This document shows positions 16,246 through 48,170 of a DNA stretch of 64,000 nucleotides, piece by piece. This DNA is from Podarcis liolepis (Eukaryota). The stretch's first letter is position 1. The number at the start of each line of letters is the position of its first letter. A model generated the notes under the pieces. It saw nothing but the letters and a program-made list of their open reading frames with translations, ran no database searches and was not told where the DNA came from. The DNA is taken from assembly GCA_965112155.1 (NCBI GenBank), contig OZ218101.1; one strand, given 5' to 3'. The position numbers and the translations under genes were made by a program.

Positions 16246-16425
<180 letters not shown>

Positions 16426-20330: not shown

Positions 20331-20957
<627 letters not shown>

Positions 20958-23900
20958 TAATTATATTTAAAATTGATTAGAAATAAATTGCATGTAGAAA
21001 AGGGAAATTGTTTAATTGCGAATATGACTTTTAATCATATCTTTTTCTGTACATCGTAGAAATAATTAGCTTTTGATACAAAAATTAACTTTTTATGCAT
21101 GCTAACTTGATAAATCAAATTTCAGAACAGCTTTATTTGCAGCACAGTTATTCTTCATGTTTATTATCATTATTTTTTTGGGGGGGGGTTCCATGGAGGG
21201 GTATTTTGCCTATACTAGTGTGCTTCTGTCTTGGATGCTAGTTTCTTTCACAGGCATGAATTTCTTGTTTTGTGATAAGTGTGTTTGTGTTGTTCCTCAA
21301 AATCTTTGATGGTGAATATGAAATATTTATTTCTAGTCCTAGGGCTCTTGCATTCTGGAAGGCTCCAATCCTAATAGTTTGAGTTAGGCAGTAGGTGTCT
21401 TTCCTAATTCAGTTTGCTCCTGCCTTCATCGAAAGCAGCCAGGCTGCCATTAAACTCCCACCTCTGTTCTGCTGAGACAATATTTTTCTTTCTTTGTATG
21501 ACTTTTCAGTCTGTCTTTCTGCCTTTTGCCCTGCTTGCATTTGGCTTATTTTCTCCCCTTTGTGGCTTGCTGGTTCACATTTTCTCTACTCTCTCCTTTA
21601 AAAAAAAAAAAAACACTAAAAAAATTAAAATCAACCCCTTTGCCTCCTCTTTGCCTAGCCTCTTCTCTACACCACTTTTTTCTTCTGGCTCTTTGGTGAA
21701 GAGTGGTGAGAGTGGAATACCAGCCTCTTTAAACACGGCTTTAGCAGGCAGCCTCAGGTCCAGGTGTGAGTGCTGTATCACTGTTTCAGAAGTGCCCCTT
21801 TAGTGGGAATGACAGCAGGGCACCCTTCCTCTGCAGCGTCTCGTGGCTCCAGCCAGCCAGTAGCCCACAAGGCAACAGAGGCTCCTGATTGGATCTTAAG
21901 AGTAGTATTCCATTGCTAGGGTAAAGTAATCCTCCCCCAGTTAGATTTGACTACAATATTTTGTCCTAGATAGGTCCTAGTTTCTCCTTTGTTGCTGTTA
22001 TGGATTTCTTGTACAATTAGGCTGGCCTAAATTTCAACATAGATAGATGCTGATTTAAAAGGGCAACATGCAATGAAAGATTGTTCACTAATACTGCACC
22101 ATTTTCTACTGCATACTGAAAACCCAGTAAACGAATGGGTGTAAAATATAAGCATAATAGCTACTGAGCATACAAGCCAAAACTCAAGTTTCTTGTTACT
22201 ATGGTTATCAGTATTCTGCTCATATTATTGGCACTTTATTTTACAGTATATGTACACGTCCCATATTTTACTGCTCTACTCCTTTGTCATTAACTGCAGC
22301 CTCACATTACAAAAGTGGGTGGAAATTTTCCTGACATAGAGAGATATGGTTTAAAAACTTGTCCTGCTTAATTTCTGCATCTTAAGATACTGTTAAAGGC
22401 ACCAGAAAAGAAAAAAAAATTGATAAGTGTAGATAGCAATACTTTTTCAAAATGTTAAATGGTTTACTGGGAACATTGCATACTTAACATTTATGAAGCA
22501 AAACCTGGTGAACAATAGTTGCCACTTCACAGCTTTCGCTGCTATTTTGTTCATTGCCCTGAGCAGGGATAAAATTCAGACTGGCAATATTTTTTAAAAA
22601 ATAAGTCATAAGGGGAAGTTGATTGAGGAGTACAGGAAGAGAAGTAAACTCTGAGCCTTATATATGTGTTTATATAAAATTATGCTTCCTGTGCTGAGAA
22701 GCCATACTGTGAGCCATACCTGTAATATGCTAGAAGATGCAAGATACTGTTTTCTGGTGCAACATACAAATTTTTGAAGTAGTGTAAAATAGATTCCTTC
22801 ATCTCAGAGGGTTTTGAAGATCCTCTCAGAATTTCTTTCATTTCATTCAGACCTACTTCAGCCATCTCTCATTTTGTAGAATGTGAAGAGAGAAAACTAT
22901 TTTTGCTGTGTATATTCCATTACTAGGTTAAGAAAGGTAATGCTATAGAGAGTAAAGCACATAGCACTGGTGGAAAATACTTAATGCAAGTGCTGAAACT
23001 GGCCATAAATTTTGCCTTAGCTGTTTAACATTCTGAGCAGAATAACAGTGTGTTGCTATCTGCCACAGCGAAAGCTTAAAAGGTCAATGAGAGATGTATT
23101 TCCCTGAACACTTGAGGACCTACAGCAGAATACACAATTGTCTAGTTTCCTGGCTCATATCCAACATGTTTTTGGAGCTGTGTGTGGAAGGAGCTGAAGC
23201 GATTCAAATTATTTATTAGTTAATTTATTAATATATATTTTTAAACACCCTCTTGGTTTAGATATCAGAACAGTGTACAAAATAAGACCAAAGTGGTCAT
23301 GCCACCATAGTAATAGTGAATAACTTGATGCTAATAAGGATAACAGTCTGCACCAGTCATACCTCTACATGCTTTGCACTGTATGCATAATAAACAATCT
23401 GGCAAACATAAGTGTACCTGAAGATTAAATTATACGGTGGCTCTTACAAAGTGACTTAGAACAATCACATGAGACATGCAACTCATGTGTACCAATTAAA
23501 GAAGCTACATTTTAACTTGAAATGGTAGATGTGGCATGGCTTACTATATGCCTAAAAATAATGGATCCTGGGATACAAGTACCATAAGCACTGATAACCG
23601 GGAAACACTGGCCTGCAAGCATTCCAACTGGAGAACAGCCTTTACCAAAGGTGTCACAGACTTTGAAGGAGCATGAACTCAGGGTGAAAAGGAGAAACGA
23701 GCTAAGAGAAAGGCACGTTTGACAACCCCTCACCAAGATCAACTCTCACCTGGAAACCTCTCTCCCCCCTGTGGAAGAATGTGTGGATCCAGAATTGATC
23801 CACAGTCACTTACGGACTCACTGTTAAGATGGTGTTCATGGAAGACAATCTTACTCAGCTACGAGTGATCACCAAAGAAAGAAGGGAAAGAACAAGTACC

Positions 23901-25026
23901 ATACCTCCTACTTTTTATACAGATTATATAATTTATACTTACAGCATTTTTATTGTGGTTCCTTTTTTATCTGGGAAGCATAAAGCAGTGTTGAACATCC
24001 TTTGGTTTAGCTGTGTAAACCTAAGTTGCTGTGTTTTTCCCCAAGGGCTTGCTGGGTAGGATAGACTTCGAAATGATATAGATCACTTGAGTTGTCTGCA
24101 CCAGACAGAATCTATTAAGTATAGTTGATGTTCTGGCTACTTTGTTAGTTCTTTGAATCTTCCCTGGCAGGCAGGCAGAAGGACCATTAACATGTTATAT
24201 TTCTCCCTCTGGAACTCTTCAGTGTAATAAATGCACATGTATCCAGTGGCATCTTGGATGTTCAAAGCTATAAAAAATGGCAAGTGATGTATCACTTTAG
24301 AAATATGAGTTCTGTTGAGTAGTTGAAAGTATACTACAACTGGGAAAGAACTTTCTGTTCTATAACAGCCAACATGTTTTTTATAAGTCATTCATTTGTT
24401 TAAAAAAATGTACCCAGTATAACCTGACATGATCACTCCTTGTATTCTTAACAGAACCAAACATAAGAAATAAAAGTCTAAAAATGAACTGTATAAAATA
24501 TGTATTTTATGCTTGGTTACATTTAAAGCTCCAATACAAATCCTTCCACTGTCAGGTGGCGTTGTGGCCTGGCCACAGCCATGTCTGCAACCTGGGAGCA
24601 TTGTCCGGGTGGATTCCAGCCTGCTCGCAGATTGGCCAATGGTGGGCAGTCATGGGCTGGAGTTCCCCAGGGGGCAGACCCAACTGACCAATAAGCGTCA
24701 CTTTGGGTCCACTCCCAGGGGGGATAAATTGACCAGGTTTTCTTCCCAGTGTGTCAGTCTTTGTTACTGCTTTTGCTGCTTTCAAAGGTTAGTCACTTAA
24801 ATTGATTTCCCAAATTTTCTTTCATTATAAATTTGGTTTCACTTCTAATCCAGTTTCATCACTATTTCTGATACTCCAATTTGATTATTGTTGACATGGG
24901 GCCTATGTGCTGTTGACAGTGTGGGATGCATGTGGTTAGAAGGCCAAAAAGGCAAGCAAGGTAGGGGTTTGATTTAAACTGATTTAAATTAGGCAAAATA
25001 TTTGTCAGTACATTGTTAGCTCTTTT

Positions 25027-26658
25027 GACTTCTGGAGAGGAAAATGGCGGACTAGATATCGCTTGTCAACAGTCTGTCGACAGAGATAATTATGTGGTGA
25101 TTAATGATAGTGAAAGGCATAAATCTTAGTTATTACATTCTCTCTGAGAAGAGAGTGGCCTAGAACAGAGGAATTTCAATCGTGTCCAAACACAACATAA
25201 TAGTCCTGAGGGTCAGTCCTGAGGGCATAAAGTGGGCAAAACCTCCCTTTCTTTAATTACTTTTGAGACTGTTATAAATTATAACTGAAGTGATCTCTCC
25301 GCTTGTTGAAATTTGCATCTGGGATGTGAACTGACTTATGAAGAGATGATCATTGAAAGGCTGAAAGCAAAACAGAATGTTTTAATAGTTTACGACTAAG
25401 AAAGATTTTAAGTGGCTAAGGAGCATTCCAACTGTTAGAAATTTTTATTTTATTCTTAACCTTCCATCCCTTTGATAAAAGTACTGGCTGCAAACTGAAA
25501 CTAGTTTTATTTATGCCTCTGTGGGAAAAGAATGCTGTCTGGAGATAAGGAGATGGGAGAGTCAAGCTGTTAAGGCAGAAAGACTTTAAGGTGGAGAGTG
25601 AGTTATTAATAAGACCAAGAACACTCAGTATGGCAAAAACACTGTTGGACACCCCATTGACTGTTGGCATCATGCAACGATTACTGGATGAGCAATTAAA
25701 ATTTGAGATCAGAGCTGAGATGGCTAAAAGGGTGAATGAAAATAGACCAGTGAAAGATGAGGTTAAAGAAGACACTGAACCCTTGGAAAATAATATTGAT
25801 AAATGACTGCCAGAATAGGAGAGTGGAATGGAAGAAGAGAAAATGGAAGTACTGGTTTTTTTATATATAAATTAGGATGGAAAACCACAACGAACAGGAA
25901 ATTGGAAGATATGGAACTGGGTGTGAATTAATGAATGAATAACTCTTGATTACAGGAAAGAGACTCCTGTATGAATAAAGATGAAGGATTTATTGCTTCT
26001 CAACATTGAAGGTAAAGTTATTGTGCTGGACAGGAGGAAGACTATTCTTGACATTTATCAATGATAATAATTGGAGAACCTCTTTTAGAGTTTGTGTAAG
26101 GAAGGGAAAAGGAATGGACTTGAGATGTCTGGATCTGAAGCCTGGAATAATATTGCCTAGCAGAAGGAGGAAAAGCTGGATACCTTTCTGGAGTGAATAT
26201 TTTGAATAATATTTATATATATAAAACTGACAGATGGAGAAATAGAAGCCCTTTTTATTTCTCTTTTCCTTTATTTTCTTTTTTCAGCCGCTTATTATTT
26301 TTATCTTCTTGCTTTTTTCCCTTCTGTTTCTTCTTGCTTTGTTTTTTTGTTTTGTTTTTGGTGTCCTATACTCTGGGTCACCGAAGGGATTGTATACACA
26401 TGAAGGTGATGGCTGGCTGGTGAAGGACCCCATGTGAGAGTCAGGTAGGGGAAGATCTCCCAGGGTGGGAGGCTGGGGGGAGAAGAAAGGGATGCTCCCA
26501 AGTGAGAGCTGGGAAGGTCCATCCCCTTCTGTGTGAATCAAGGATTAAGATACCTTTGTATTTACTTAACTCTTCCTTTTTCGTTTTCTCTTATTTAGAT
26601 TAGTTTGTTGTTGACTTATTGTATGATGAAAAACTTTTAATAAAAATGATGGAAAAAA
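25027..26658 (+). mobile_element. ~1.6-kb L1-like non-autonomous retroelement (5' UTR plus decayed ORF1-like coiled coil, no RT)
   Basis: starts gacttctgg..aaaatggcgg (YY1-like site); ORF 25591 is E/K-rich and coiled-coil-like; ends aataaaaat..gaaaaaa; flanked by a degenerate 17-bp TSD tacattgttagctcttt/tacattgccagttcttt. Confidence 0.6.
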
Positions 26659-27133
26659 TACATTGCCAGTTCTTTGTTTTGTTTTTCTTCGGTTTTGCTT
26701 GCAATGAAAAAACAACTCCTCTTTGAGCATTCTTTTTTTATATTAGAGATACCATAGTAGATTTGTTGTAATTTATTCCTTAGTGGTGTTTTTCATTATG
26801 GATTACTCTGTTGTTTTCTATTATTGATTTCCTCCCAGTCTTACAATAACTAAATGAAGAGCTTGCTTCATTCCCTGAAGCATATTCTTTCAGTAGTGGT
26901 TGCAGAAACAAGCTTTGTATGACATTCTTTGTGTCACTTAAACCATGTTACTCTTTTGTGTTTCAGCTACAGCCTTATGTAATTACTATATTCATCTGAA
27001 AAAGTTGCTATCTAAAGTGTTTTGAAGCAAGACACCTTTCCTCTGAGATAATATCTGGCTAAACTACAGACTTTTTGTTTTTTAAGCATAAATATTTTCA
27101 TTTTGGGAGTTAAGTGTTTTGATACATTGGTAA

Positions 27134-27312
27134 CATAGCTGTCAACCTTCGCTTTTTTGTGTGGGAAATTCCCTTATTCCAGCGCTGTTTCCCGCTGCTA
27201 TCTCGGATTGTTAGATATCCCGTAGACTGTCCCCGGGACAGGTGAGGCTGCTGATCCCTTATTTTTGAGGCTGCTGGTCCCTTATTTTCAAATCTGAAAG
27301 TTGACAACTATG
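27134..27312. mobile_element. hAT-type MITE
   Basis: TIR catagctgtcaac/gttgacaactatg; perfect 8-bp TSD attggtaa at 27126-27133 and 27313-27320. Confidence 0.88.
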
Positions 27313-30300
27313 ATTGGTAATGAATATGCTCTTCTAGTATGAAGTTCTGTACAAAGAAACAGTCTTCTAGTTGAAAGAACTGTATGTTACTTCTCATTTT
27401 GTGAATACCTTATGGTAGAGGGTTGAGGAGCATTTTTCAGCCAGAGGGTTACATTCCCATGTCCTGAAGTGAAAAGGAAAAAGTGCAATGATGAAGACAA
27501 ATGTAGGAGGAGCAATGAATGTGATTCTCTCATATCTAAGAGGTTTCTACACACACCTGACTCCACCCTTGCAATGAACATACCATATCACAGTACAAGG
27601 AGTGATCTTGGGAGAAAGCCAAGGGCCACACAGGAGGACTGCATTCAGCCTCCATGCCTGCTGTAGTATGTCCTATATTCTCTGCTATCTATATTAGCCA
27701 TATGCTGAAGTATGACAAAAAGCCAACAAGGACTTGAATATGGTGGTAACTTTGCCACACTGCAGCTCTCTGTTCCCAGTTGGGATTGCTTTGTCCATCA
27801 CCTTTCAGCAACTTAAACATTTGTGGTGCCTCTTGTTGAAATGCAAAGTTTCCTTTTTAACTTAGAAACTCAATGAAAGCTTGACATCTGTTCCTAACTA
27901 ATAATAATATTTTATTATATATTTATTAATATTAAACAACAGAGCAAAGCGTATGTGCTAGCTCAATGCAGGTCCATAGGAAGGTATGCATTTACTATAA
28001 GAGTCTATAAATCTTACGGACAGTGCTTGCTGTATGTGTACCATATGTCATATGCCATATTTCAGCACACTCCTTTCTGAATTGAAAGTGTACCTATGCC
28101 ACTTTGAAACTCTTGCTACTTTTGCAGCACCATCACATGCATGTATATTCAGAAGCAGCTCCCACTGTGTTAATGGCTCCTCCATTAAATGTGAATAGGA
28201 TTGTAGCCTTAGCAGTAAGAGAAAGAATAACCTACCCTCAGAGGAGACCATCCCTCCTTGATTCTGCACAAGTTCCTGAATCTGGGCATACGAATTATGC
28301 ATAGATGCAGTGAACTGTCTCTTCACTAAGTGGGTATTTTGAGTTCAGGGGGAACTTGAATTGATTTAATTCGGTTCTCACAGCACACTGAAGTTTCTTT
28401 GCACACAGTGTGGGAATTACTGACCTAATAAAATGAAAAGCAGCATGTTTACCCTAAGTTGCTGTTGAATTCAGAATTAGGTTTATGAAAACATTGTATC
28501 TTCAGAGGTGATCAGCCTGCAGTATCTTCACTACTAATTTAGGGCTTCTGCTCAACGTCTCCTTCCTTAGTCTGTCAAAAACATTATTTAATGAGTATAC
28601 TCTGCCAGGGTATGTCTCCATCAGTTTTTTCAGAGATGAATAGATTTCTTTTTTGAAAAGAGTGGCATTTTGCATTCAAAGCCAACATATTTTTGGTACT
28701 TTTAATAGCTAAGTTTGCTTACTTAATTCCCATTGGTACCACTCCACGCTGCCAGTGGAAATCAGGCAGCTTTGGGGGACCAATTTTAATTGAAACCATG
28801 GTGTAAACGAACAGGGTTAACCCCCTCCCTTTGTGCTGTGATCCTCAATACAATTAGGGGCTCTGCAGCTGCTATTAACATTTTAAAATGTTTCAGTCAC
28901 ACAATTAATGTCCTGTCTTAATGGCATTTCCTGTCTTTTATGCCCATTGTGTTTGTAGAGTATAACCTGGTAGACTACACCTCACAACTCACCATTGTTA
29001 TAACACAGCCTCCCCCTGGGCCTGTTTTTGGCCCAGTCTAAGTACTCATAAACAATAATGTTTCTCCTTTCCTCTTTGAAATGTTGGAGGGTATGAAAAT
29101 GATGAACTGCTTTCACCAATTTTTCATGGAGCTATAGGACTATTTTAGTATGTAGCTCACAGAAACATGGAATATATTTTGATGAGCTTCTGAACAGCTC
29201 CCAGCTGTCCTAGGAAAGCTGTCACAAAACCAAATCTTACATTTTTGACAGCAGTAACAGTGAAGTAGTGAAGCAAGAGGAGCTATTTTTAAATCATCAA
29301 TATCAAGTGTTAAAGTTAATGCCATAAGGATTAGTGAATCAATAAGCTTTTAAAATTAAGATACAGACAAGGTTAGAGACATTTAAGTCTTTGCTGGCAA
29401 GCATGATGCTTACAAGCTGCACAGGCTATATGTATTCTATAACAGCAAATTATAATTGGAGCTGGTATATGTCCTGGCTTTGTATGATTAAAACTAGGGA
29501 TATACTTGTGAGAGGCAAGCATTACTTTTTGTAGGTTTAATGTAAGCAAGCAAGAACACTGACAGCTTGAGATATCCACCCATCTGTGCGATATAGCATG
29601 TAGGTAGGAAACATTTTGCAGGAGAAGATGCACAATTTAAATAAGGTGGAGAGAAATAACACTGGACTAGAGCATGGCTGTGGAGACATTCTGTGATAGT
29701 TATCCCCTATAGATTTCATATATACTATTTCATGTGCATATGGAACCTCTCAAGAGATTGACACTCGATTAAGTGCAACATCAGTAGCATAATTATGATA
29801 TTCTGTAAACCGCACTGAGACCTCTGGGTGTAGGGCAGTATATAAATTCAATAAATAATAATAATAATAATAATAACAAGCTGCACTTACCTTTTTCACA
29901 GACCCAGGTGCATCAATCTCTGTATTTAAGCAGTATTTGGAAGCAGTGCTTGACTAGCTTCATGAAAATGGATTGAACAATCTAGGGTTTAGCCTTCCCT
30001 TTTGATAAGGTACACTGGAATGCCCCTGGAGTGAGCTTTGCTACTAATTTCTGGGGCAATAGTGCCAATTAATTTTTTTTTTAACTGCATTGGAATTTGT
30101 ATCAGCAGCCCTTCATAGAGTGAAAGGGGCCTTTCAAGCTATTCATTTTTTCCCCCTAACTTTGAGGATTGGCCATTTCAGAGCCTCAGTGATAAAATAG
30201 AAACATAGCTAAAGGTTTTTCCCTATAAAAACCTTCCATCTGATTTATTTTGAAAATCATAACTTAATATATTTTATTTAGTCTCATTGTATTGTGTGAA

Positions 30301-30325
30301 GGTACATGAGGCCACCACCTTGCTT

Positions 30326-30425
30326 AAGCTAAGCAGGTCTGATCATTGTCTGGAACAGCGACCACTTGGGAACCACCTTTATGCCACCTTGAGTACCATG
30401 ATGGAAGAAAGGTGGGTTATTAAGA
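30326..30425 (+). mobile_element. Degraded 5S-rRNA-derived (SINE3-like) element with L2-like tail
   Basis: aagctaagcagg..gaccacttgggaac resembles the 5S internal control region; tail gccaccttgag..aaaggtggg is shared with the SINE at 11256. Confidence 0.4.
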
Positions 30426-31690
30426 TTTAAAAACAAATATATGGCCCCGCCTTTGATGAATGTTCAGAATTTAGAACTGGATAGAAGTCATAGCCATGCC
30501 TCCTAACAGTGATAGGGTAACAAGGACATAGTCAGTTAGCTTTTTTCAGCAACTGCACTGGCTGCTTATTAGCATCTGAAATATGTTCAAGGTGCTAGTT
30601 CTAACTTACCAAGTTTGGGAGGGAGGACACACCTTCAATATAAACATTCCTCTCCTTTTAATATTAACGAAGGGGATATTACCCGTGCATAGAATCAAAA
30701 GGATGCAAAAGGGTCTTATTCAGGTGGCCAAAGTAGGGCTACCAGAACACGGCTTAGTCTTTGAAGAAACATACCAGATAAAACAGCAAGTAGCACAGGC
30801 CATATAAAAGTTATTGACAGATAAACCAGTCACTGCTGCAAGCATAGGGAAATAGAATTAAGGTCTTAACCTGCCAGCTAAAATGTAGTACAGGTGAACT
30901 TCTCTAGGGAGCAGATTCTGCTATAGAAAAGCCTCTTTCCTTGGTTGTTACCTGCCTCACTCACACTTCTGAAATAGTTTAAGAACTTCCATGAATCGTG
31001 ATCTGTTAAATTTACCATGATTACTTGGGGGCAGGAAATGAATCAGGAAAATTCACTGCAATCCCACCCCCCTGCCCTGAGTTTTGTGCAAGCAAACAGT
31101 GCTTCATGGTTATCATCTTTGTCATCAAAGAAATATATTCTTGCAATTCATATTCAGTTGTGATTCAAAATTTGGCACATAATAGATTCAGCACGTAGTG
31201 TTGACATCTGTCCATCGCATCAAAACTATTTTCTGTAAAGTGACCTAGGTGCAAGAAATGAAGTTCGGGAAGGTAGATATTTTGTAGTTGTTTTTTTGGT
31301 CACACCAATACTCACGTTTGAGCATTTTCATCCCTTAATGTTATTATGAAAAGCATCCCTTGTTTCCTATCTGTGTTGCTGTGGCAACTTGTGATTAGGT
31401 AGCAGCAGTTGATGGGTTTCAGGCTTTATCATTGCCGAATTCAGAGGCAACACTTCACCCTGCCAGTTTCTGCAGTGAGCTATGAAATATTCTCCTTCCT
31501 GTCCTTCCCACAGACTTTCTCATCACCAAGGCGACGGGTATCTACCCACACAATTGGGATCTGAGATCAGCAGCTTAAAGTGGGATTGTTCAGATTCTGG
31601 CACGCACACTCTGAATTCTGAATTATTTGCTGTGGTAGCACTGTGCTGTCTAAATGCTCTTCCTTTTTTTATTTTAAAACAATCAGGTTA

Positions 31691-31913
31691 GTGGTGTAGG
31701 GATTAGCGTGCTGGATTGGGACCTGGGAGACCAGAGTTCAAATCCACACTCATTTGTGAAGCTCACCAGGTGACCTTGGGCCAGTCACACTTCTCAGCCT
31801 AACTTAGCTCACAGGGTTTCTGTGAGGATAAAATGGGGAGGTGGGTATGTAGGCCACTTTCAGCTCCCTGGAGAATGAATGGGATATAGAGTAATAATAA
31901 ATAAAATAATAAT
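31691..31913 (+). mobile_element. tRNA-derived SINE, same family as the copy at 11256
   Basis: gtggtgtagggattagc A box, gagttcaaatcc B box, shared core, (taa)n tail. Confidence 0.7.
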
Positions 31914-32294
31914 ATCTTATATTTAGATTTAACAGATACTTATATTGATGTAGCATATGGGAGGCATTGACTAATCAGTCCCAAACCTTAGGAGTTGAAT
32001 AGCTGTCTGCATGGTGTATTTTAAAAGGCCTTCAGGCAGGATTAGCAAACTTCTGATGCCAAACATGTTTTCAAGGAGCTAGTCTTTTGATTTAAGATTA
32101 AGATTAACTATATAGAGTTTGTACAGACTTCCTTTTGCATCGTGCTTCAAAGCTCTGTGTCTTGAGTGTTTTTTGTTTGTCCCAGGAAAAACCTTCATTT
32201 TACCTCTGAATCATAGTACGTGACTATCCACTGAAAACCCAATTGCTTTTTGCTCCAATTCAGCGTTGAAACACTGTTGTACCAGGGAAAGTGC

Positions 32295-32327
<33 letters not shown>

Positions 32328-33798
32328 GATACGGAACTTTAATGCCCAAAGGATGTCTGGATGAGCTTCTCTCATGCACCGGTCAAATAGAGAGGGCTCT
32401 GGTTCTTGCCTATACTGGGCACCTAGCTTGCAGAAAGCACCAAATAGGCAGTTGATTAGAGAGAAGGTATCAGAGGAAGGAAAGTGGCACTTGAAATGGG
32501 GAAAATGGACCGCAGAAGGTGCAAAATGATTGTTGTTAAGTGCCTACAAAGTTGCTAAGCCATGTGCAGAATTTTCATAACATCAATCATCATAGACTTC
32601 CCCCACAGTTTAAGATTGTACATGACATGGAAGAGGCAAATGGAGGCAGATCAAGCAGAGAAAGCTTGAGAGAAAGAACAAGGTTTTAGAAGGTTCAGGA
32701 GCCTCAGAATTACAATTATGAGAAGAATTGTGTTTATAGAATAAAGCACAAAAGGTTCTTTTTTGCCGCAATGAACAGATTTACAAAAATAAGAATACAG
32801 TGGGTTCCCTAGTTTGTTTGTTTTGCTTTTCTGTTCCTTTGTTTATTTACTTGGTTATGCAACTAGAAGAGTTTCACATTAAAAAATAACAAACCCATTC
32901 ATGTTCACATATGGAAAGACTGAAACGATAGCAAAGCTGTTGGTTGTTTCTATCTTTAAGCAAAGCTGTAATGCACTAGAGATCTCATAGCATTTGCATC
33001 ACTTGACTTCTGTAATAAGAGCCAGCGTCCTAATGAAATCCCTGTATAGTTCTGATTTTCTCTAATTACACTGGTGAGTGCAGCATATTATGTGTTTAGT
33101 GCCCAGATGCTTTCCTAATAGGCTGAAATCAGAGTTTTCTTTCCAGTTTACACAGCAATAAAAGGACTGAAATCAGTGGCTTGTAGAATATTTAATATAG
33201 TCATGCTTATGTAAGAACACTAGCACAAATGTAATTCTCATCAAAATCTGAAAGCAGTAACATTTTATCTGTTTGAAATTCTGTTGAATGGGTTCTGAAT
33301 TTACTGATGCAAATAGAATGAACAAATATGAAACCATCATTTTAACTGTCAGTTGTTGGCATTTGTCTGTCTCTGGGGGTGAAGTCAAACTGCTGCGTTA
33401 GCAGCACCGAAGTGACTTCCCTGGTCCATACCAAAGTGACCTACTGTGACTCAGTGGAGGCTGCTGCTTTCACTGTGTGTGCCTGAGACTGCCCTTGTTT
33501 CTTGCCTTGGCCCTCTTTCCTGGCTGTTAGGCAAAAGAGTCTTCCTTGCAGTTGGTAGATCTTGAACCTGTGTCCCAGGAGTGTTGCATATGTTCTGTGT
33601 AGCCCCCTATGCAGGTGCTGTGTTTTCTCCTTCCTCCCCTCTGTGTGTTGTGTTCCTAAAGCAGTGTTGTGTTCCTAAAGCAGTGTTTGTTACAGGTAAA
33701 AAGGGATTTGTACTACTCACCTTTCAAAGTCTGCTGGCCCTACCAGGGAATGTCTCACTAGGACTCATTGCTCTCCTTATCCTTTTCCCTCATATATA

Positions 33799-33967
33799 CC
33801 GTATTTTTCACTCTATAACACGCACCCAACCATAACACGCACATAGTTTTTAGAGGAGGAAAATCCGTAGGCATGCCACCTGTAGGCATTCCCTCCATAA
33901 CACGCACAGACATTTCCCCTTACTTTCTAGGAGGAAAAAAGTGAGTGTTGTGGTGCAAAAAATACGG
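33799..33967. mobile_element. Tc1/mariner-type MITE, family B, short copy
   Basis: TA|ccgtatttttcactctataaca...tgcaaaaaatacgg|TA; shares acatttcccctta with the other copies. Confidence 0.8.
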
Positions 33968-35367
33968 TATATATTGACTGCCTCATACCAATACCACCTG
34001 TGTAGCCTGAGATACCTGGTCCATCGCAGTCCAAGAAACCGTATCAGCACATATGAGAAGTCATTGTTACTAGGCTTTCAACCATTGACCCTGAGTCCTG
34101 CATCTCCACTCTCACATAGTGTCATTTGAGGCCTTCTGAAGCTAGATCAAACCAGAGTTTGAAATACCGAGGCAAAAATTTATTATGGGAACTGGTCCAC
34201 ATAAGTTGACGCCATAATAAATTTGTTAGTCTTTCATGTGACACAAGATTCGTCATTGTTTCTGTCAGCATCTGACAGTATTTACCTTGCTTAACCTTTG
34301 CTGTAATCAAGACCAGCAATCCTAGCATCATTCTTCAAATACTTTGCTTTCGTCATCTGACAAGGAACCAGTTGTTGCTCTAATAATTCTCTGCTGTGTT
34401 TGGCCCCTGAACAAAATAAACTTCAGAGAAGATGCATTGAATTGGTTCTAACAGGCGCTTATTTGACATATCCTGTTTCTGATTCTTGGAGTTTTTGAAT
34501 AGCAAAAATATTAAGGGCCTGTCCACATTTCCAATTGTCCTGCACTTATTAGAATTTGCATAGGATCGATAGTACTGATCTGAAAGCTTTCCATTTATAC
34601 CCCGACACTTTATCGGAAGAAATGCAAAACCCCTTAAAAGCTGAATAGAAATTTGTTCCCCTTTTGATCTGATCCTTTTTTTAGCTCCTGAACAGAAAAA
34701 TGTGCACTTTCCCTTGCGGTGCATTGTGTGGGTGGTCCTCTTTCACCTCCAGCCCTTCTGTGCACCTCTGGTTCTCTGCCCCACGCTTTTTAAAAATGTG
34801 TCTGCCTTTTGTGCTCATCACATTGCAATCGATTATATGTGTTTGCAAGTGAGCATGAAAGCAGCTTCCCTTTCCAGTGCCAATAGCGGGCGGACTGTTT
34901 GGGGCAATGCGGAGCCTGCAGGCCCCATGGTGAGTGCCGCCCGCCATTTTGTCACCCCCCTCAGTGGTGACACCGGAAGCAGACCGTCCCCCTTCCTCCG
35001 CCCCTGATGTGTGGCTCTGCTGTGATGCAGGGACAGAGAAAAGGGTGGGGACAAGGAGAAAAGTAGAACAGTGGAATGGACATGTTTCAAGGAATTCACA
35101 GTTAAAAAGATCAGTGTAAAATGCATCGGTGGGGACCTAAAACCCCAGACTAAACTTGAGTTGAGACAAATCTGCAATGGATAAAACACAAACTTTTGTG
35201 AAGTGTGGATGGACCCTAAGGTGGGGAAATTGTTGCAATACAAATTTCTGAAGGGTAGCCATGTTTTTATGGTAGACTAATGCACTGTGACATAAGCTTT
35301 TGTGAGCTAGACCCACTTTGCCACGGCCATGGTCACTTAATTGAGTACTTACAGTATGTGTATGTGT

Positions 35368-35424
<57 letters not shown>
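35368..35424. repeat. (AC)n(AG)n compound microsatellite
   Basis: direct reading. Confidence 0.95.
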
Positions 35425-35426
<2 letters not shown>

Positions 35427-38037
35427 CAGGCAGACAGATAGAAAGACAGTGAGACAGACAGAGAGAGAGTTCAGAAGTAAGGGAGCCAAAAGTTATTTCC
35501 AAATTATTGGAAAAAAGAGTGACAGGCAATGCAAGAGATGATAGCAGCAGGTGTATCAGCACCATACAGAGTACATATGAACACAGAATCTAGTCAGTCT
35601 TTTTCAGTTTAATGACCTGCTTCTCTGATTAGCGCCAGGGTGATGATTGGCATAGCCAGATCAACAGGATAATCAGTTTCTTTGGTGAGCTAGGACATAT
35701 ATAACTTCCACTATGTAAAATGTGCTAGTGAATTCTAATCCAGCAGCTTCATGTTGAAATTTTTAACCCTTTTTCCTGGGAGTTTGGTGACTTTGTCTGT
35801 TACAGAATGTCCTGGAAAACTGAAATGCTTCCTATTAGTTCTCAAGTGTACCAAATCTGCACCTGTATAGGAATAGTTCTTTATCTATTTTTTATTTTTA
35901 TCACTTGTTGTTTGCGACCCTGCGCATAAATTTATGTCTGATTTTGTATGCCTTTATTCTCTTGCATAAAGCATGATGTTTTGGCTTGTGTGAATGGTGA
36001 AAGGGAATTATTGGCAGAGGACAGCATACATCAGGTTAGAAGATGTGCCGGTGAATAACCTCTTGGCGGAATGGCTGAAATTTTCAGGGCTCTAGATGGT
36101 GTTGCTAAAGTAGCAAGGGGACCAAAGTTGGCACCAGGGTTTGCTTAAAAGTTTTCCCCCTGATGGTTCATTGCTGTAGCTGCTTCAGATTGATGGGGCT
36201 GTGTGAAAGGGCAGGCCTACACTGACCCTAGTGAGAGGAAAGGGCCATCTCCCAGGATAGATTGCAGATCTTTGATAACATATTGGAAAAGTTTTTATTT
36301 GGAACCTGAAGGTGACAGAATTAACCAATATAAAATTGGCACCCTAAGCACTCTTATATTTTGCAAAAAGAATGGAATGCCTGGAATCCTTTTCTCTATT
36401 GAAGGCTTTTCTTTGATACCTATCTTTAATATAAATCAGGAAATTTGAAATGAGATGGAAGTACACTGGGCTCTTAATATAATAGCAAAGTTGTTTTGAG
36501 GCTTTAGAGTTCATTTGTTTTACAGATAACGCTGAGAAATGCAGATGATTTGCCAAGCATATAAGAACTGTGATCTGCTTCACATGACACAGTAAGCCAA
36601 ACTATGGCTTTCCAGGATTGCACAAATGTGCAAACTCCCAGAGTGAAGACTCACAACCACTTTGCTCCTCTGCAACTTTTATCGTTAATGAGAAGCAAAC
36701 TTAAATCACAAGCTAAGTCAAACCTTTCCCACTGGTTTCACAAGAGGTACATGATAATAATTTTGTACAGTTAGGAATCGTGTGAATATAGTGAATAGAG
36801 AGACATAGGGTTGGATCTGGGCTTAGGCTGAATTTCTCTAACCTGATTTACTTAGGAGTAAGTAAAAGCTCTAGAGTCTGTTTAGACTTAACCAAAAGGT
36901 GCTTGTTTTTATTTTTTTCATTTTATTGAATTTATATACTGCCCTATGCCTGGAGTTCTCAGGGCGGTTCACAGAACTAAATCAGAATATAAAACCACAA
37001 AATATATAATCAAAATAAAAGCAACAACCCAATTAACCCCCCCCCCCTTTATGGCTCAACAGCCATGGTCTGTCCATTGTAATTGGCATTTTAACTTATT
37101 AATTAATCAAAATTAAAAGGGGGAAATCAGATTATTGTAACCACAATCTACAGTAACCTAATTTTTTGTTAATTAGATACAAACCCTACCTTATCAGGGA
37201 GGGCAGCTTGTGGGTAGGCTCTATGTATATATGAGCTCCCATATCTGTTGATTAAATTACAGTCATATGCATGTGGATGGATAGATAGATGCATCTTATA
37301 TACGTATATGAATGTATGTGTGTTTCTAGGATGTACTTAGTGTTCCTTTAAATTTTTACATAAGCGTGCCAACTCAAGCAGGCATAGGACTCATCAAGTA
37401 TGAAGATTTTTTAAACATTCATGTTGATTTTAATTAGAACAATCATACAGTCATACTGGATATACTGCTGAAGGTGTAAACATAAACAAGACTTCAATTT
37501 TCAGTATCATTTTTTTATTACAGAAATTAATAGGTGGGTGTGTTTTTTAAAAACAAAAACACAAACATGTTGAGAAGGTTAGGTTTTTCAGTCTAAATCA
37601 ATGTTTCCCATTTTCTTAGTACGTAATTTTTGTAATGCATATTAAATAGGAAAATCCTAGTTGATAATTAGATTAAAACTAAATATATGTTGCTTATCAT
37701 TTTTGTTTAGTTTGATTTTATAATTACTGTCACCATTTTAATTTAAATTGAAAAATCTAGAACTGCATCCTACTAATTTTCTTTCTTTCATCAGAGACCG
37801 AGACTTCTAAAGTCTGATACCAGAATAAGTACTATGGGTTTTTTTTCTTGCGCATGTATGCATGCAAATAAAAAAAGAGCACTGTCGAGCTAACATCATA
37901 TGAAAATCTTGCCATATATGCTTTCTCTCTTTATCAAGATTGCATGATTGTATTACTAATGCAATTCTAATATGATATAGTAATAACAGCCCATCACAGT
38001 TCTTTCACCATATTGTATCACTGCTTTATCGTATTAG

Positions 38038-38042
38038 GCTAA
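38038..38042 (+). CDS. CNKSR2: Coding part of the CNKSR2 alternative terminal exon for a short isoform (A|GC TAA = Ser-stop), MAGUIN-2/CNK2B-like and lacking the PDZ ligand
   Basis: ttatcgtattag| acceptor; joining to the phase-1 donor at 20949 gives ...EDES*; followed by repeat-poor UTR-like sequence with AATAAA at 39687, 40718 and 42179; C-terminally truncated CNK2B/MAGUIN-2 isoforms are known in mammals. Confidence 0.7.
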
Positions 38043-41000
38043 AGCACTGCGAGAGTTGATAGAACCTCCCCATGCCAACTCGGATCCACTTCTCTTGGCA
38101 CTGAACCGATTGGACTCAGAGATTGATAAACTATTGGTTAGAGAATTTAGATCGGAGAGAATTGGCACGACGGAGACTCATCTTCAGCCTCTTGCAAGCA
38201 ACCTCTAATGTCCTGCATTCTGAAAGCCAATCAATTCTTCTTGAATAACTGATGTTTTTAAGAAAGAACTGACTTTAAAACATAGACAACCAAATGCCTG
38301 GGTAAGGGGCCTCCAGGAAAGTCTTACAAAGGGCAAACCTGTTGCCAGATCTATTGCTTTTATTTTGAAGAATGCATCCTTTCTACAGAGGGATTAGGCA
38401 CAATATCAGACCCAGGCTACATGGAATACAGTTGCAGAAAATACTGCTCACCAACTTGGGAGAAACAGAAGGGGGAAAGGGTGATGGCAGGGGAAGGGCT
38501 ATGATGATACTCAGGTGTGTTCTGCAGTCTTCAAGGAAGGAAAGAGGGATCAGCTGTGGTAACTATAAAATCATATTTTGAAAATATTTTGAAAACTTCA
38601 GTTACTTCCATTCATCCAAAGCGGCAAAAGCTAATACCATTCTTAGTGTATTTCACAGTAGTGAAGGAAGATAACTTGCTGTATAATACTCATTCAATGT
38701 ATTCTGTCAAGTCCAAGTGTGCACAGACTGTTGCAAGACCTAAAGCCGCATTCTAACTGTGTTTACTTAGGAACAAATCCTATTAATTTCAGTGGGATTT
38801 AGGCTCAAACTACACATGATGGTAGCAGAACCATTTGTTTAAATCCACATCTCTACCAAAAATGTCCACAAAAGATGTGAACAGATTCCTTTTTTAAAGC
38901 AAAGATTGTATGCCTTTGGGGACTGGTGACCCTTTCCTCCATGTGCTGTATCTTCCTGCAGTTTGCCCCATTTTATTCTAAGCTGAGCTCCAATTCCAGA
39001 AGTGAGCTCAATGTGGAGAAGAAAAGGACTGGGGAGAGGCTTTAAGGTGGTTATTAGCAGTGTACATGTGGAAGGTTCAGTTGGCCTAAAAATCACAAAC
39101 CCAACTCCACACTTAAAATGTGATTGAAGCAGACCTGGGTTTAAATACTGTCATGTGTAGCTTAATCCTTGTTTTCAAGTAAGTGTGTTTAGGATTGCAA
39201 CAGAGTTTGTTAAGCAGTTTATAATGATTTATCTGATGGTGCACAAATACTGATTTTATGACAGTGAATATAATGCCTCACTTTGGTGTGTTTCAAACTG
39301 CAGATAGAAATCTTCAATTTCTCCTTACCTTCTAGGATTTAAATGTGAATGATGTTGCCTTGCAGCATAGACATAAGGTATTCTCTGTAAATCCTTCAGG
39401 ATCCCTAGGAGGCAATTTGGAGGGGCCAAGATTTCGATGGAATGTCTCCCTAAGTAGATTCAGATATTGTCTATCATTATGTTTTGGGTCTCCTATGGAT
39501 CTTTTTTTGCCTGTATCTCTGTGATTGGATGTGGGTTTTCTTTCTATTTTTGGCTAAGGGTGTACTGTAATGTCAATGCTAAATTCTTGATATTTCATAC
39601 TAATTATGGAGAGAGAATTTTAAGATGTATTTTGAAATGTTTTATTTCTGTCAGGTCCATGTATGGTATTGCATTATGTTAATACCAATAAAATATATAG
39701 AGTTATTTATATACAAATGCATATATTTCCCTTTTTATAAAGGTGTTGCAATTTTTTCATAAGGAAATAATACACAGCAACTGCTTGACAGCAGTAAGAA
39801 AACTCTAGAAGCTTTAATATGCTTGAATAATAATTTAAAAAAACCTGTATTCTGTAGGCAGACCAGTAGAAAATGCATGTAATTTTTAAACAAGGTTATT
39901 TGACCTGGCATAGGTCTGTCAAGATTTGACTATAAATTCAGCTTCCACTATTTTTATGAGCACAGATCTAATGTTCTTGTTTTATCAAAATATGTTGATT
40001 ATTAGCTGATGTTTAGAAAGTAAAACAATAATCTTTGGACACACTTCATTCAAATATATAATCACTTTAGTCCTGCTGATTAAATAAGGGAGTTAAGTGC
40101 AGGCCTAAATCCCATTGAAATCAATGGGGTTTGAAGTGCTTAACTTTGACTGGATTTAGCTGTTTATGGGCTGTTGTGTCGGTTGACTAAAGATACAATC
40201 TCCCTGCGTTTTTTAAATTAATCATATGTTCTAAGAAATTTACTGTAATTCACTGCTGTTTTGATGCTCGGCAAAAGCAGCCTTCAGTTTTTTATAGAGG
40301 GTCTATTTTTTAGGGTTAATAAACTACTGCTTAGTGCATAAAGATTTGCAAGCCGGAAGATTTATTACTCAAGCCTAGCTGGATTGGGTTGAAACCTTTA
40401 CAGTTTATCATTAAATTCTGTAATTAGACAGAAATGAAATGTTTTAGAAATGAATCAGGGAGCTAAAAGCTGAGATTAGAATTTAAAGTATCTTCCATTA
40501 TCAGTTTTCAGTGATGGCTCATATGTAACACTTTGCCTAAGGCTGAAAGGAGCTGATATTCTGGCACCATTGTGCATTCAAATTTCAGCATGGACGTTTC
40601 TGTCCCAAATAGTGTATTGAATGACCATTTCCATTTTGCAGGGATATTCATGGCAGCAGTTAGCTGTCCAAGACATTAATTGCACATATCTTTGTAAAGC
40701 TTCTCTGTACTACTAAAAATAAAGTTTGTAAAATTCCAGTTATTTTTTCTTAATGCAAACAGGGTTTTTTTAACAAAGGAAAAAAGAGGTGAATTGCTTT
40801 CTACTTTCTTCCTTGGAGACAGATATTTCAGTGGTTCTGCTTTGCCGTTTTTTCTTAAGGCCTTTTCTTGTGATGAACCTGGACATTCACCGAATGATTC
40901 AGAATGGGCATATTTCTTTATTGCTTTCTCATACCATTTCTGATGTTACAAACTCAAGTTATAAGTATGCTGAGGATTTTTTTTTGCAAGGGTTATACCT

Positions 41001-42797
41001 CACTATGAAAAGCAACAGGACGGGCTATACACACAATATATCCAGCATATCATTCAAGTTATTCCTGTGGAAATAACGCACTAAACTCATTGATGCAAAG
41101 CAGCATGCGGCACATTTGGTTTCATTGTAAAGCAATGAAGTTGGTTGGTTATCAATAGCTATTGCCCTCAGTAAAAGTGTGCCCTACCTCTAAAAACAGA
41201 TGCATAATTCAAAACTACATGGAAGAGCATCATGCTGCGTTGATTGCTTTCAGATGGGACATCTATCTGCCATAAAGTAAGAAACCTAACTACCATGGTG
41301 GTAGTCCTGGAAGCATAACTGGGCCTGTGTTGGCACTTGGAGGAGAACTGTGTGGTGCTTAGTAATTTAACCCCTCTATAGAGTTTGCGAAGATATTGCA
41401 CTATTGGGCTATTCAGTGTAAAAGTACATAGATTAGGAGTGCACATTTGTTGGCCTCCTTACAGGGTGCTTTCATGGTTAAATCTATGTACTGTAGTTGC
41501 CATGGTGATACAACTATTGCTGTGGATCACTTCTGATCCATGAACAGAAGGAGATTTTGTTCACAGAAAGAGAATTGCGCTCACGTTGAAAATGCCCGTT
41601 CTGTGAGCACAAGCTTTCTGTGATTACAGAACAAAACGTTACGATCAAAACTGGTACATATATTACATTTGTGATATGAGTAAAGATTGTGTGCTGAGCA
41701 TATCTGTACTGTATTCATAGTTGAATACTTGTCCTAAAACCCTTGGCAGACAAGTGTTACTCAAATTTGACTTGACTAATGTAACTAAGACCAGCCACCT
41801 CCACTATTTGTCATTTAACCTTTAGTACAGCCTCATATATGATAACCACATTTCACGCCACAGATATTTTGCTAAAAGAACAATAATTATGTGTCACTTG
41901 TTGTAGGCTTTTCCATAAGAACAGGATTATCCCCTTCAAAACTGATTTCCCATAAGGTGAAACAAAAAACGAAACAAAGCCCCAACCTATTAATTGCTTA
42001 CCGTGGTTCTGATTCTATCAGAATTAAGTATCAGAGTAGTATTGTATTACCTGATCCCTGAAATAATGAAAACTAAAAACTAATCTGCCATCGAAATGTG
42101 GTAGTGATTTTTTAAAAATTACTTGAGTTCTTTTCCCTACGACTGTAATTGCTTTGTTTACCACCGAAAAATACATGAAATAAACAAGCTGATCTATTTG
42201 TTGTATAGTACTTAAACCAAATGAGTTAGGGTAGATTTATTAATGTTTGCCATTGCACATACATTATTTTGAAGCATATTTGTTTTCTGCTAATTTTCTG
42301 TTGATTTTATTTTTATTATTTTTCTCTTTTCTTTGTACTTTCTGTCAATAGCTACCTCTTATGACCTTCAGGTAAGAAGCTTGCTTAGTTGTTTCTTTCC
42401 TTTGAAATGATGAAGGCTCAGTGTAGTGTCAATCAGACTGTGCCTCTCCATACTGAAAGCCTTTTATGATGCTTTAAAATGGTTGTTAACCGGGTCGTAC
42501 CTCAAACCCTTCAACCAATTGCACATGACATAATCTCAATTAAGGTAGCTTAAGGGACAGTTGTTCTGAAATGCAATAACTTACAATCTGATAAGCAAAT
42601 ATTATTCATTGCATCTTTCATCTTTTCTTCCTGAAACTGGAGAATATGATATATTCTTTATTATTTTATTCAAAATCGTTCAAGAAACTAAAATTCAAGG
42701 CCCAAACTGTATTGTGAAAGTTCCAGTTTTAAGACATGTTGGGATGGAACAAGCCCATTGGACACTGATTTCCACTTAGCAATGATTCCAGCATCCT

Positions 42798-44347: not shown

Positions 44348-46865
44348 CTTATTTTATTTTCGTATTATGCCATCCTTGCTCTCATTTGCAATACAGCTAT
44401 TGGGGAAGGATTTAAAAAAAACTGCTATGAAAGAGAGTTAGGGTTGTATCTCAGAGCATTTCCTATCTAAAACAAGTTATTTCTTTTTCTTTCTCAAGTT
44501 TACAACAATTTCTTATTTTCCACATGACAGATTTTACAAATGCTTAGTGCAAAATTCTGAAGTTAAAACTTGCATTGCAGTTCCTGAGTTAAATTCTTGT
44601 CATGTTCACACATGACCAATAAACAAAACTCTAGCAATGGAGCCAAGCTTTACATGTGGGGCAGCCTCAGTTTTTCTGTGGATCAAATGGGACAACAAAA
44701 ACAGGCTATATGAAAAGAGGTGTTAAAGAAGGCACAATCCACTTGCTGCAACTGGTGTCATCAGTGGTCCATACTGTTCTTCTGTGGTGTCTGTAAATAA
44801 TATAAATCACAGAGTAATACTCCTCTGATCATTCCATTGATCAGGCTGGAGATAGCAATATCTGAGGATGGAAAACACTAACAAATCTAGAAGAAAGATA
44901 AAACATGTAGGGCTAATTTTATGCCAATCCTTCCCCACCCCTTCAGTCTTTTGTGATCAGTATCTCTGTCAATCACATCCACAATATGTCACAAACACTT
45001 TCAGTTGAATCCAGAATTAGATGCACAAGCAAAGAGCTCCTCCAGACTATCTTGTTTATGAATCCTGATTTGCTTGTGCAAAGCACAGAAGGTTGGTTAG
45101 ACTGTGTCCAGTTATTATTCAGCATTTCTTCTGATTTGTTTGTGGGGAGATTATATGAAAATCTATTCATCTTCATTTGCTTGTGGGGTGTTTATATGTC
45201 TTTTCATTGATCAGTTGTACATTCCATACTTTTCAATGCATTTCTCTGTCGCTTTCCTAACTGCAAAAAGTCTGTTATTTTTTAAGTGTGGATGGGTTGC
45301 TGCAGGGGGGAAAGTGCTCTAATCTACTTCAGCTGCGCAAACTTATATATCTCACTTTGTACTTCAGTCCTTCCCACAAAATATTGACAATCTGCAGTTA
45401 CCCAAATTTATAAAACTCTTGTCTTCTTGTCTAGGTCTTGGCTAAAAAAGAAACCAACCCTGACATAGAAGATTAGGATAATTTAACATTTATATATTGC
45501 ATTCACATACATTGTCTCAGTGATTCATACAAGATCTCTGAAAGGTAGGCCAGTATTAATATCCCCATATTGCACCTGAAGGTTTGAAGCTAAGAAAATA
45601 GTAGCTTAGCTAGGGCCATCATAGGAGTTCATGGTTATGATTTGAATCAGGAACTTCTCAGCTCACATCGTTAGGCAGTTTTCTACATCAAAATTTTGAA
45701 CGCAAACAAATTCAGTTTCCATTGCATTTTTAGGGAAGCACTCCTAAATTATAAAGATGTAGCCACAGCATATATATGATGGCAAGCTGTGAGGTGCCAT
45801 TAACTCTAACTGTAGACACGTTGAATTGTTGTGGTGGTATATTTTTGAGGCATTTGGTTATGAATCCTGTCAAATCAAAGCAGAAAGACATATTTGCCTG
45901 CCTCTGATTTCAGTAATTTGCACATTTAAAAAAACACACAACTATATTGTATTTGTGCAGACTAGAAAGCAATTCTTGACTTAGATATTTTATTGGAGCA
46001 TTTTCTGTTTGGAGAAGACACTCTTCCTGCAGCAGTGTGTGTGCACTGATATGTATACGGAGCTCCAGTGGCTCATATATTTCAGTTTAAAAGATTTTTG
46101 TGGCAGGAACTCTGTGTGCTCATTGAAGCCTGGTGCCCTCAAAGAGTATAGGATAAAAGTTCTGCAGTGTCATCCTATGTGTGTTTACTTGGAGGTAAAT
46201 TGAGTTTGGTGGAACTTTCCCCTAAGTAAGAGTGTTTAGGAATGCAGACTTGATAGGTTAGTCCTCTTCTATTAGATCTTTTTGCCAAGCACAATGGAAG
46301 GATTCTTTAGACAGCCTCTCTTCTCTCATGGTTTGAATTGTGAGCCAATTATAAAATATATATAGATACATTTAAGCAAACAACACTCCCATTTCAACAT
46401 GCAACAGGGCAATGGGTGTGCCCTTGGAAGTGCACAATACAGTTCTCATCACCTGATTTTATACAGTTTTTGCACGATATAGATGATTGACTTTAAATTT
46501 GATATTAATGTGACAAATTAATTCGGAAGCTGTATATTGATTGTCACATGATTATCTTTTTATATGTACCTGTGCTGGGAATTTGTAACTTACCATGACT
46601 TTTCACGTTATATATGTATATGTATAGAAATATATGTATGGGGGGGAATATATGCATACACATATATAAATATCTGCATGTTGCAAAATACATGTATGCA
46701 TGCATAAGGATTGCTCAAGGATTGCTCAATCTACACATTTCATGCCTTTTCTGTAAGGAAATAATTTCAGTAAAATTTTGCCACATTTGAATAGTTAAAC
46801 TTCTTAAGCCTTGTCATGGACTTTGAAACTAATTTAGGCTGATGTTTTTCAAACTATGCAGTTAA

Positions 46866-47087
<222 letters not shown>

Positions 47088-47930
47088 TAATTAGGCGGTC
47101 AGCAAATTTCACAAAAGGAGAGTATCCTGAATAGAACTCAAGGGATATATTGCACATATTTAAAAATAGATGGACACTGGGAAATGCTGTACACAAAAGA
47201 GGTTCGAAGAAAGAAAGAAAACTTTAGTTTCTCAACAACAACAAACATGTTTAACTCAGTTCCCGTTTTAATGAAGAGTTAATCTGCTTCTGGTCCATTC
47301 TGTGGTAAATGAAGACATTATCCATAAGCCTGGTGATGTCACAGATATTTAGATACTATCATATTGCTTTGTGTACTTCAGAATATGAAATAATTTTGCC
47401 CAGTTTTCAAAATTCTCATAGGAGTACAGAATTTTTTATGTATCCAGGTACCATGCTCTGAGAATTCCCTTTTTGCCAATACATAGTAAATAGTGTAATG
47501 ATAAATTGATTCCTCAGACACCAGAAAGAAATCCATTATGTTCCTTAGCATCTTTCTGTTGATATGGCAGAGATCCTCTTTATGTTCTGTTGCTTGTCAT
47601 TTTCTGTGTCCCCCCACCCCCGCTCCCCACTTTCCTCCCCTTTGTTCTTGGCTTGTTTCTATCACAGCTACATATACACCGCTTTAGGAAAGTTTCTTGG
47701 GGAAGTTCCAAAATCTCAAACCACCACTAATTCAGAGCAAACATTCAAATTAGTCAAAACACCAAACAGAGTGGTTTTCAGATATTTTTTTAGGGAGTTT
47801 CCCACTGGTCTTAAAATGAAGCTATTAGGGTTTTTATCTAGAAATGGCATCTCAAAGTACAATGGTATCTCAGGCATGTTCTTTAAAAGCTAACAGCACA
47901 AGACGAAGGGTACTTTGTTCCTCATTCTGA

Positions 47931-48170
<240 letters not shown>

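Follow-up and report, generated by a model that had tools for sequence, protein, structure and literature searches.

A candidate third last exon with a predicted PDZ-type end in the CNKSR2 gene of a lacertid lizard

Introduction

The closest described system is the gene itself. In the portions of the published accounts available to us, CNKSR2 isoforms arise from alternative last exons, which give CNK2A/MAGUIN-1, ending in ETHV, and CNK2B/MAGUIN-2, which has no PDZ motif (PMC10040811, PMC8774548, PMC10272126, PMC8820740). The same portions report that the two forms are unlike in how they bind PSD scaffolds, in the dendritic localisation of their mRNA and in ARF6 activation (PMC8774548, PMC8820740, PMC10272126), and that the cytohesin-binding region lies in the CNK2A C-terminus (PMC10272126). 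In mouse CA1, about 80% of the junction reads from cell bodies belong to the short form, and the long form is found in dendrites, according to the accessible part of one study (PMC8820740).

Two further bodies of work bear on short regulated exons. Neural microexons have been described, in the passages at hand, as usually preserving the frame and having weak 3' splice sites and distant branch points (PMC12871342, PMC7821500), with a branch-point median of 45-47 nt (PMC12871342). RBFOX is reported to promote inclusion from downstream of an exon and skipping from upstream (available part of PMC10551640), and QKI to repress exons with ACUAA branch sites by competing with SF1 (available parts of PMC13004596 and PMC3983035); located upstream of an exon, both tend toward repression (same portions of PMC10551640 and PMC3983035).

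Here we analyse a window of 64,000 nucleotides from Podarcis liolepis (contig OZ218101.1) that contains the 3' half of CNKSR2. The original prediction held that a short intronic element, either a 17-nt frame-switching microexon controlled by RBFOX and QKI or a mini terminal exon, decides whether the protein ends in S with no ligand, in SKV or in a 56-residue tail ending in ASNL. The locus shares with the CNK2A/CNK2B switch the gene, the common donor after a large exon, an immediate stop in the proximal last exon and distal ETHV exons, and it differs in the acceptor at 37794 and its SKV tip, a third ending that does not figure in the parts of the published accounts we found. Like RAI14 exon 11 and NUMB exon 12, which QKI represses, it has a branch-point-like ACUAAU and a further QKI element nearby; unlike them, as far as the available portions describe them, its motif is single rather than tandem, the exon is probably terminal rather than a cassette, and QKI binding is predicted (PMC13004596, PMC3983035).

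Results

The gene at this site is lacertid CNKSR2: the exons, 11 of which were mapped with tblastn, encode the region from the PH domain to the C-terminus, and the 538-nt exon, which probably corresponds to exon 20 of mammals, is 99% identical to Podarcis/Lacerta CNKSR2. Among the 120 CNKSR2 homologues listed, of 1752 matches, 102 proteins end in YIETHV and 4 in YTETHV. The features discussed below are collected in Table 1.

Table 1. Positions of CNKSR2 exons, candidate exon A and regulatory motifs in the window
Feature	Position	Strand	Remarks
CNKSR2 exon preceding the 538-nt exon	16310-16410	+	ends in phase 0
538-nt CNKSR2 exon	20412-20949	+	phase-1 donor AAA/GTAAGC, common to all endings
Branch-point-like TACTAAT	37771-37777	+	predicted branch A 37776 (-19); also ACUAAU QKI/SF1 motif
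Pyrimidine tract	37778-37791	+	candidate exon A 3' site
Acceptor CAG	37792-37794	+	candidate exon A 3' site
Coding part, candidate exon A	37795-37817	+	K-T-E-T-S-K-V-stop if joined to 20949; splice predicted
Weak donor GTCTGA of the 17-nt cassette originally predicted	37812-37817	+	4/11 U1 matches
GCATG and TGCATG overlapping better donor CAT/GTATGCAT	37852-37864	+	exon end 37855, 61-nt exon
AATAAA	37867-37872	+	49 nt past stop; candidate poly(A) signal, ~95-nt terminal exon
TGCATG at 37941; ACTAAT-N7-TAAT (37955-37971), a bipartite element of QKI type	37941-37971	+
Exon B, expressed alternative last exon (CNK2B/MAGUIN-2 type)	38038-39702	+	AATAAA 39687, long 3'UTR
Phase-0 open frame, 56 aa, ending ASNL-stop	38038-38208	+
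Canonical long-isoform exon	46885-47081	+	phase 1 to 0; TGCATG upstream at 46675, 46697
Canonical last exon, IETHV-stop	47955-48170	+	known PDZ-binding motif

Several features of the surrounding gene were recorded alongside. Directly after the common donor lie ACTAAT (20956) and TGCATG (20989, 21096) on the + strand, and read-through past 20949 would end in SKH-stop; similar read-through ends occur in turtle and snake database models. Chrysemys picta bellii proteins P0102, P0106, P0110, P0111, P0115 and P0119 carry an 8-residue in-frame insert at the counterpart of the 20949/46885 junction, probably added by splicing to an alternative acceptor upstream of the canonical exon; its 24-nt form is present in 5 of the 120 listed proteins, and a search of the lizard intron and window found no counterpart. 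An intronless BTB-BACK-Kelch gene (53855-55693, minus strand), which we take to be KLHL34 from human synteny, converges on the CNKSR2 3' end.

Fourteen sequencing runs that we guessed to be RNA, none being RNA on record, contain 0.34-0.57 of the words of 37600-40000. Four of the 24 listed runs, of unrecorded tissue, were compared with 20700-40600: two contig runs (X1, X5) and two raw-read runs (X21, X23), the latter uninformative, with CNKSR2 barely covered. A GT..AG joint from 20949 to 38038 with nothing inserted occurs in both contig runs (depth 76.6 in X1, 15.6 in X5), and because this spliced joint is present we regard X1 and X5 as RNA-derived. In phase 1, exon B reads S and then a stop (38040-38042), which bears out the ligand-less end that had been predicted; it reaches the X1 contig end at 39702, with X5 coverage to 39650, adjoining the AATAAA at 39687. 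Exon B is thus spliced to the large exon and stops without a PDZ motif, as CNK2B/MAGUIN-2-type last exons do, and we infer, from position and outcome rather than from DNA alignment, that it is the ortholog of the mammalian short last exon. The short form, assembled in both lizard contig runs, is also the dominant one in CA1 cell bodies in the available part of the mouse study (PMC8820740). An unnamed 59-aa protein, P0124, would fit the S-stop junction in a different reading frame, since S-stop results from 24 of 192 back-translations, which is no proof. Of 22 located differences between lacertid contigs, none falls in 38038-38621 (584 nt) and 22 fall in 38622-39702 (1081 nt); one further difference, in X1, has no location.

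The original prediction was right about the identity of the gene and about the S-stop end as one outcome at this locus, but it omitted the main published switch, S-stop versus IETHV-stop, whose distal exons (46885-48170) lie 9 kb beyond the candidate site. It also passed over the AATAAA at 37867, the donor at 37855 and the fact that the branch point is itself ACUAAU. Its description of the sequence is otherwise accurate: the acceptor, branch motif, pyrimidine tract, 17 nt at 37795-37811, AAA/GTCTGA, TGA (37815-37817) and phase-1 donor at 20949 are all where it placed them, and its three translations (KTETSKV-stop, S-stop and the 56-residue ASNL-stop) are reproduced. What is confirmed is this description; use of candidate exon A is a prediction.

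The acceptor at 37794 lies 243 nt ahead of the last exon demonstrably used, and the published isoform switch of this gene turns on a PDZ motif at the C-terminus (PMC10040811, PMC8774548, PMC8820740), both of which favour its use. Only 2 of the 1642 AGs in 24,271 nt of intron share its properties (at least 12 of 14 pyrimidines, YAG, CTAAY 15-45 nt upstream and no nearby AG), a set of criteria chosen post hoc with the site already known, which the gene's real acceptors mostly fail. Of these two, 37794 alone is accompanied by RBFOX motifs, by an AATAAA and by a PDZ-type end. Class-I PDZ ligands have the C-terminal consensus S/T-x-V/I/L, with which S-K-V-stop agrees, so that PDZ binding is predicted from sequence; by chance, such an end follows 69 of the 1642 intronic AGs (4.2%), and an AATAAA is expected at about 8% per 100 nt. 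Exon A has the sequence features of an alternative last exon, namely a strong 3' splice site, an in-frame stop and a poly(A) signal. The region has no Rfam match, and 37760-38060 shows no special RNA fold (z 0.16). TETSK occurs in 0 of the 120 reptile CNKSR2 proteins listed (of 1752 matches), as does the S-stop end (0 of 120), which makes this an insensitive test. Taken together, we tentatively favour the reading that 37794 is a minor, tissue-restricted alternative 3' splice site or mini last exon that would end CNKSR2 in SKV-stop; exon A is a credible but unproven third last exon and not a convincing frame-switching microexon.

The transcript comparison bears on this reading weakly. Neither a joint to 37795 nor a 3' end of exon A was seen in any of the four runs (0/4), where contigs drop rare variants and 382 loose ends are unshown, and depth in the bin 37300-37963 was 0.18, 0, 0 and 0, the 0.18 being about 23 bases, or one stray piece. 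The canonical 20949-46885 branch is also unseen in the contigs, which pass unbroken through the donor at 20949, and depth bookkeeping leaves no room for a 46885-branch piece in X5 and little in X1; since the contigs miss the canonical junction too, the negative for 37795 is weak. Pruning of the contigs could have removed a terminal exon of 95 nt or a short cassette. A run-through form over 37795-38037 at depth 3 would add about 0.76 to the X1 bin, and such a form is likely under about 4% in X1. Exon A lies outside repeats, and raw reads pile on repeats elsewhere, with depth 0 in its bin; interspersed repeats at ~23600-23880, 27150-27312, 33380-33970 and 36920-37020 attract many reads in all four runs. 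An apparent join of 21187 to 37858 (depth 5.1) was rejected for its 22 foreign letters and lack of splice ends.

The predicted motifs hold their positions (GCATG at 37852, TGCATG at 37859 and 37941, ACTAAT at 37955), and the claim that motifs and acceptor stand out from chance is borne out by the 2-in-1642 count given above and by the fact that this is the sole + strand 200-nt window in 64 kb with at least two TGCATG and at least three GCATG (local Markov resampling, P = 0.003). The ACTAAT at 37955, with a TAAT half-site 7 nt later, is one of four such elements on the + strand. Their placement fits activation of exon A and repression of exon B equally, binding being predicted only, and our literature search found no paper on RBFOX or QKI binding, or on the effect of their knock-down, at this site. 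A 14-mer containing TGCATG is repeated identically at 37853-37866 and 46691-46704 on the + strand (E 0.45), 185 and 194 nt ahead of the two used last-exon acceptors.

This equivocal placement sustains the strongest alternative, that the acceptor is a silent decoy and that the RBFOX and QKI motifs upstream of exon B repress it, tuning S-stop (CNK2B) versus IETHV-stop (CNK2A); we regard it as a real but doubtful possibility. It would account for 20949-38038 being the only joint seen, accords with the tendency of upstream RBFOX and QKI sites to repress in the available parts of PMC10551640 and PMC3983035, and agrees with the description of mouse CA1 exon-20 junction reads as short or long only in the accessible part of PMC8820740. 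Pairs of TGCATG are also found after the common donor and ahead of the canonical exon, in the second case with the 14-mer. This recurrence and the ability of exon B alone to explain the RBFOX cluster both count against a mini last exon. A silent acceptor, however, leaves the rare acceptor, the 4% PDZ-type end and the 8% poly(A) signal within 100 nt as coincidence, and the joint evidence is limited by contigs that drop minor branches and miss the canonical junction as well.

By counts of matches to the U1 consensus, used in place of MaxEntScan, the gene's 10 real donors score 6-9 of 11; the donor at 37855 scores 8, a level reached by 9 of 925 intronic GTs, and that at 37812 scores 4, which 659 of 925 random intronic GTs reach or exceed. 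The better donor would permit a poison exon, in which exon A, either as 61 nt that contain a stop or as 17 nt that shift the frame to a stop three codons on, is spliced to 46885 and triggers NMD of the long isoform. Both joins would put the stop more than 50 nt ahead of the 47081/47955 junction, and NMD would account for absence from the contigs. We nevertheless consider this improbable, as it leaves the PDZ-type end and AATAAA unexplained, the donor overlaps RBFOX motifs and recurs within the 14-mer and so may be incidental, and 46885 lies outside the stretch compared with the runs.

A separate short element lies at 42352-42371 on the + strand: a 20-nt candidate cassette with a pyrimidine tract of 25/30 and a donor, CAG/GTAAGA, of 9/11. 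It is the sole such short AG..GT candidate in the intron scan and better formed than the 17-nt microexon, and it lies beyond the stretch examined for transcripts (20700-40600). Placed between 20949 and 46885 it would shift the frame to a stop 10 codons past the donor, and is therefore a predicted poison exon for the ETHV isoform.

The original microexon model, in which 17 nt shift exon B to phase 0 and thereby yield the ASNL tail, appears very unlikely. Its frame arithmetic is correct; at 17 nt between AG and GT the element falls within the 3-27 nt of neural microexons regulated by SRRM4/RBFOX, and it shares with them downstream (U)GCAUG motifs, at 40-130 nt in the activating position, and one TGC (37764). 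It differs from them in its background-level donor, its length, which is not a multiple of three and shifts the frame, and its strong tract and 3' site with a close branch point at -19, these last at odds with neural microexons as the available part of PMC12871342 describes them; neither contig has any letters between 20949 and 38038, and no inclusion was seen in the runs examined. A background-level donor at 37812 is what a terminal exon, not a cassette, would be expected to show. Of the two options originally offered, the terminal SKV-stop exon stands as the likeliest use of the acceptor, and the microexon has little support.

Nor is the ASNL tail supported as a selected protein. Its frame stays open over 56 codons both here and in P0003 of Phrynocephalus (93%), an ab initio model whose N-terminus is unrelated, and over at least 55 in P0124 (69%), but the chance of remaining stop-free is 0.36-0.44. 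Amino-acid changes are one base away in 17/17 and 4/4 cases, several of them radical, and the excess of conservative substitutions over the neutral expectation is slight and marginal (P about 0.07). Conservation of exon B DNA extends 413 nt past the ASNL stop (P about 0.006-0.01, with the boundary set after the fact), as fits constrained 3'UTR DNA; in the short isoform, 38038-38621 is proximal 3'UTR under strong constraint, and the ASNL frame is likely conserved 3'UTR rather than protein. Among 90% cluster representatives we found the tail in no annotated CNKSR2 protein, a protein search at near lengths gave no candidate, and the tail has no Pfam or Atlas match. In metagenome_contigs and genome_contigs, 343 and 78 pattern matches included no confirmed relative, and a 23-nt exon B pattern had 0 exact matches in the DNA collections. 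P0125 was discarded as spurious, being an ankyrin-repeat protein with 0 matched stretches, and origin as a duplicate of the canonical C-terminus was rejected (best E 0.027, over a short stretch). The longest stop-free stretch on the minus strand is 65 aa. The same frame would be reached without any microexon if 16410 were joined to 38038, skipping the 538-nt exon.

Finally, we give very little credence to a form in which the 61-nt exon takes the place of the 538-nt one (16410-37795..37855-46885, in frame to IETHV-stop): both exons run from phase 0 to phase 1, this path is open in translation, and the 61-nt exon has a good acceptor and an 8/11 donor, but the phase match is a 1-in-3 chance, a T run in the exon is prone to indels, and no transcript or protein was seen, in homologue searches that could not reveal it.

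Discussion

Our analysis favours, tentatively, a mini last exon at 37794 as a third ending of CNKSR2. In this model, the donor at 20949 would choose among three acceptors, at 37794, 38037 and 46884. The expressed default in the runs examined skips 37794 and joins to 38038, giving the S-stop end, whereas use of 37794 would bring a stop within 23 nt. The transcript might then end at the AATAAA at 37867, or continue into the exon B 3'UTR, or be spliced on to exon B through the donor at 37855 that closes the 61-nt exon; in the last case the stop would lie 38 nt before the last junction, and escape from NMD is therefore predicted. All three routes would yield the same KTETSKV-stop end, a predicted class-I PDZ ligand. 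By competing with SF1, QKI bound to the ACUAAU of the branch point would probably act as a repressor of the site, and RBFOX bound to the motifs at 37852-37864 would probably promote its use and cover the donor that overlaps them; by these rules the site is expected to be off in many cells. The SKV product would keep a PDZ-type tip and lose the cytohesin-binding C-terminal region of CNK2A.

We found no paper on a third CNKSR2 ending or a microexon here; VastDB, GENCODE and bioRxiv supplements were outside the scope of this search and may list the exon. None of the 14 works listed for ETSKV concerns CNKSR2 by title, the MicroExonator supplements contain neither 'Cnksr2' nor the control 'Cpeb4' and so are uninformative, and the Hale supplement names Cnksr2 in 13 places with no isoform coordinates.

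At its most modest, our work establishes that a last exon of the CNK2B type, whose proximal 3'UTR is highly conserved, is in use in lacertid lizards. A bolder reading, which we consider unlikely at present, is that CNKSR2 has an unannotated, amniote-conserved third C-terminus, in which a mini last exon switched by RBFOX and QKI would replace ETHV with SKV, drop the cytohesin-binding region and, in particular cell types, direct the scaffold toward different PDZ partners. Two functions that CNK2A combines would be pulled apart by a third ending that has its own PDZ-type tip but no cytohesin-binding region. If conserved, this ending would mean that a gene of human neurodevelopmental disease has one more exon, as yet unannotated, and, if the reading is true, the site would present a hidden target inside an intron to variants in CNKSR2 epilepsy and intellectual disability.
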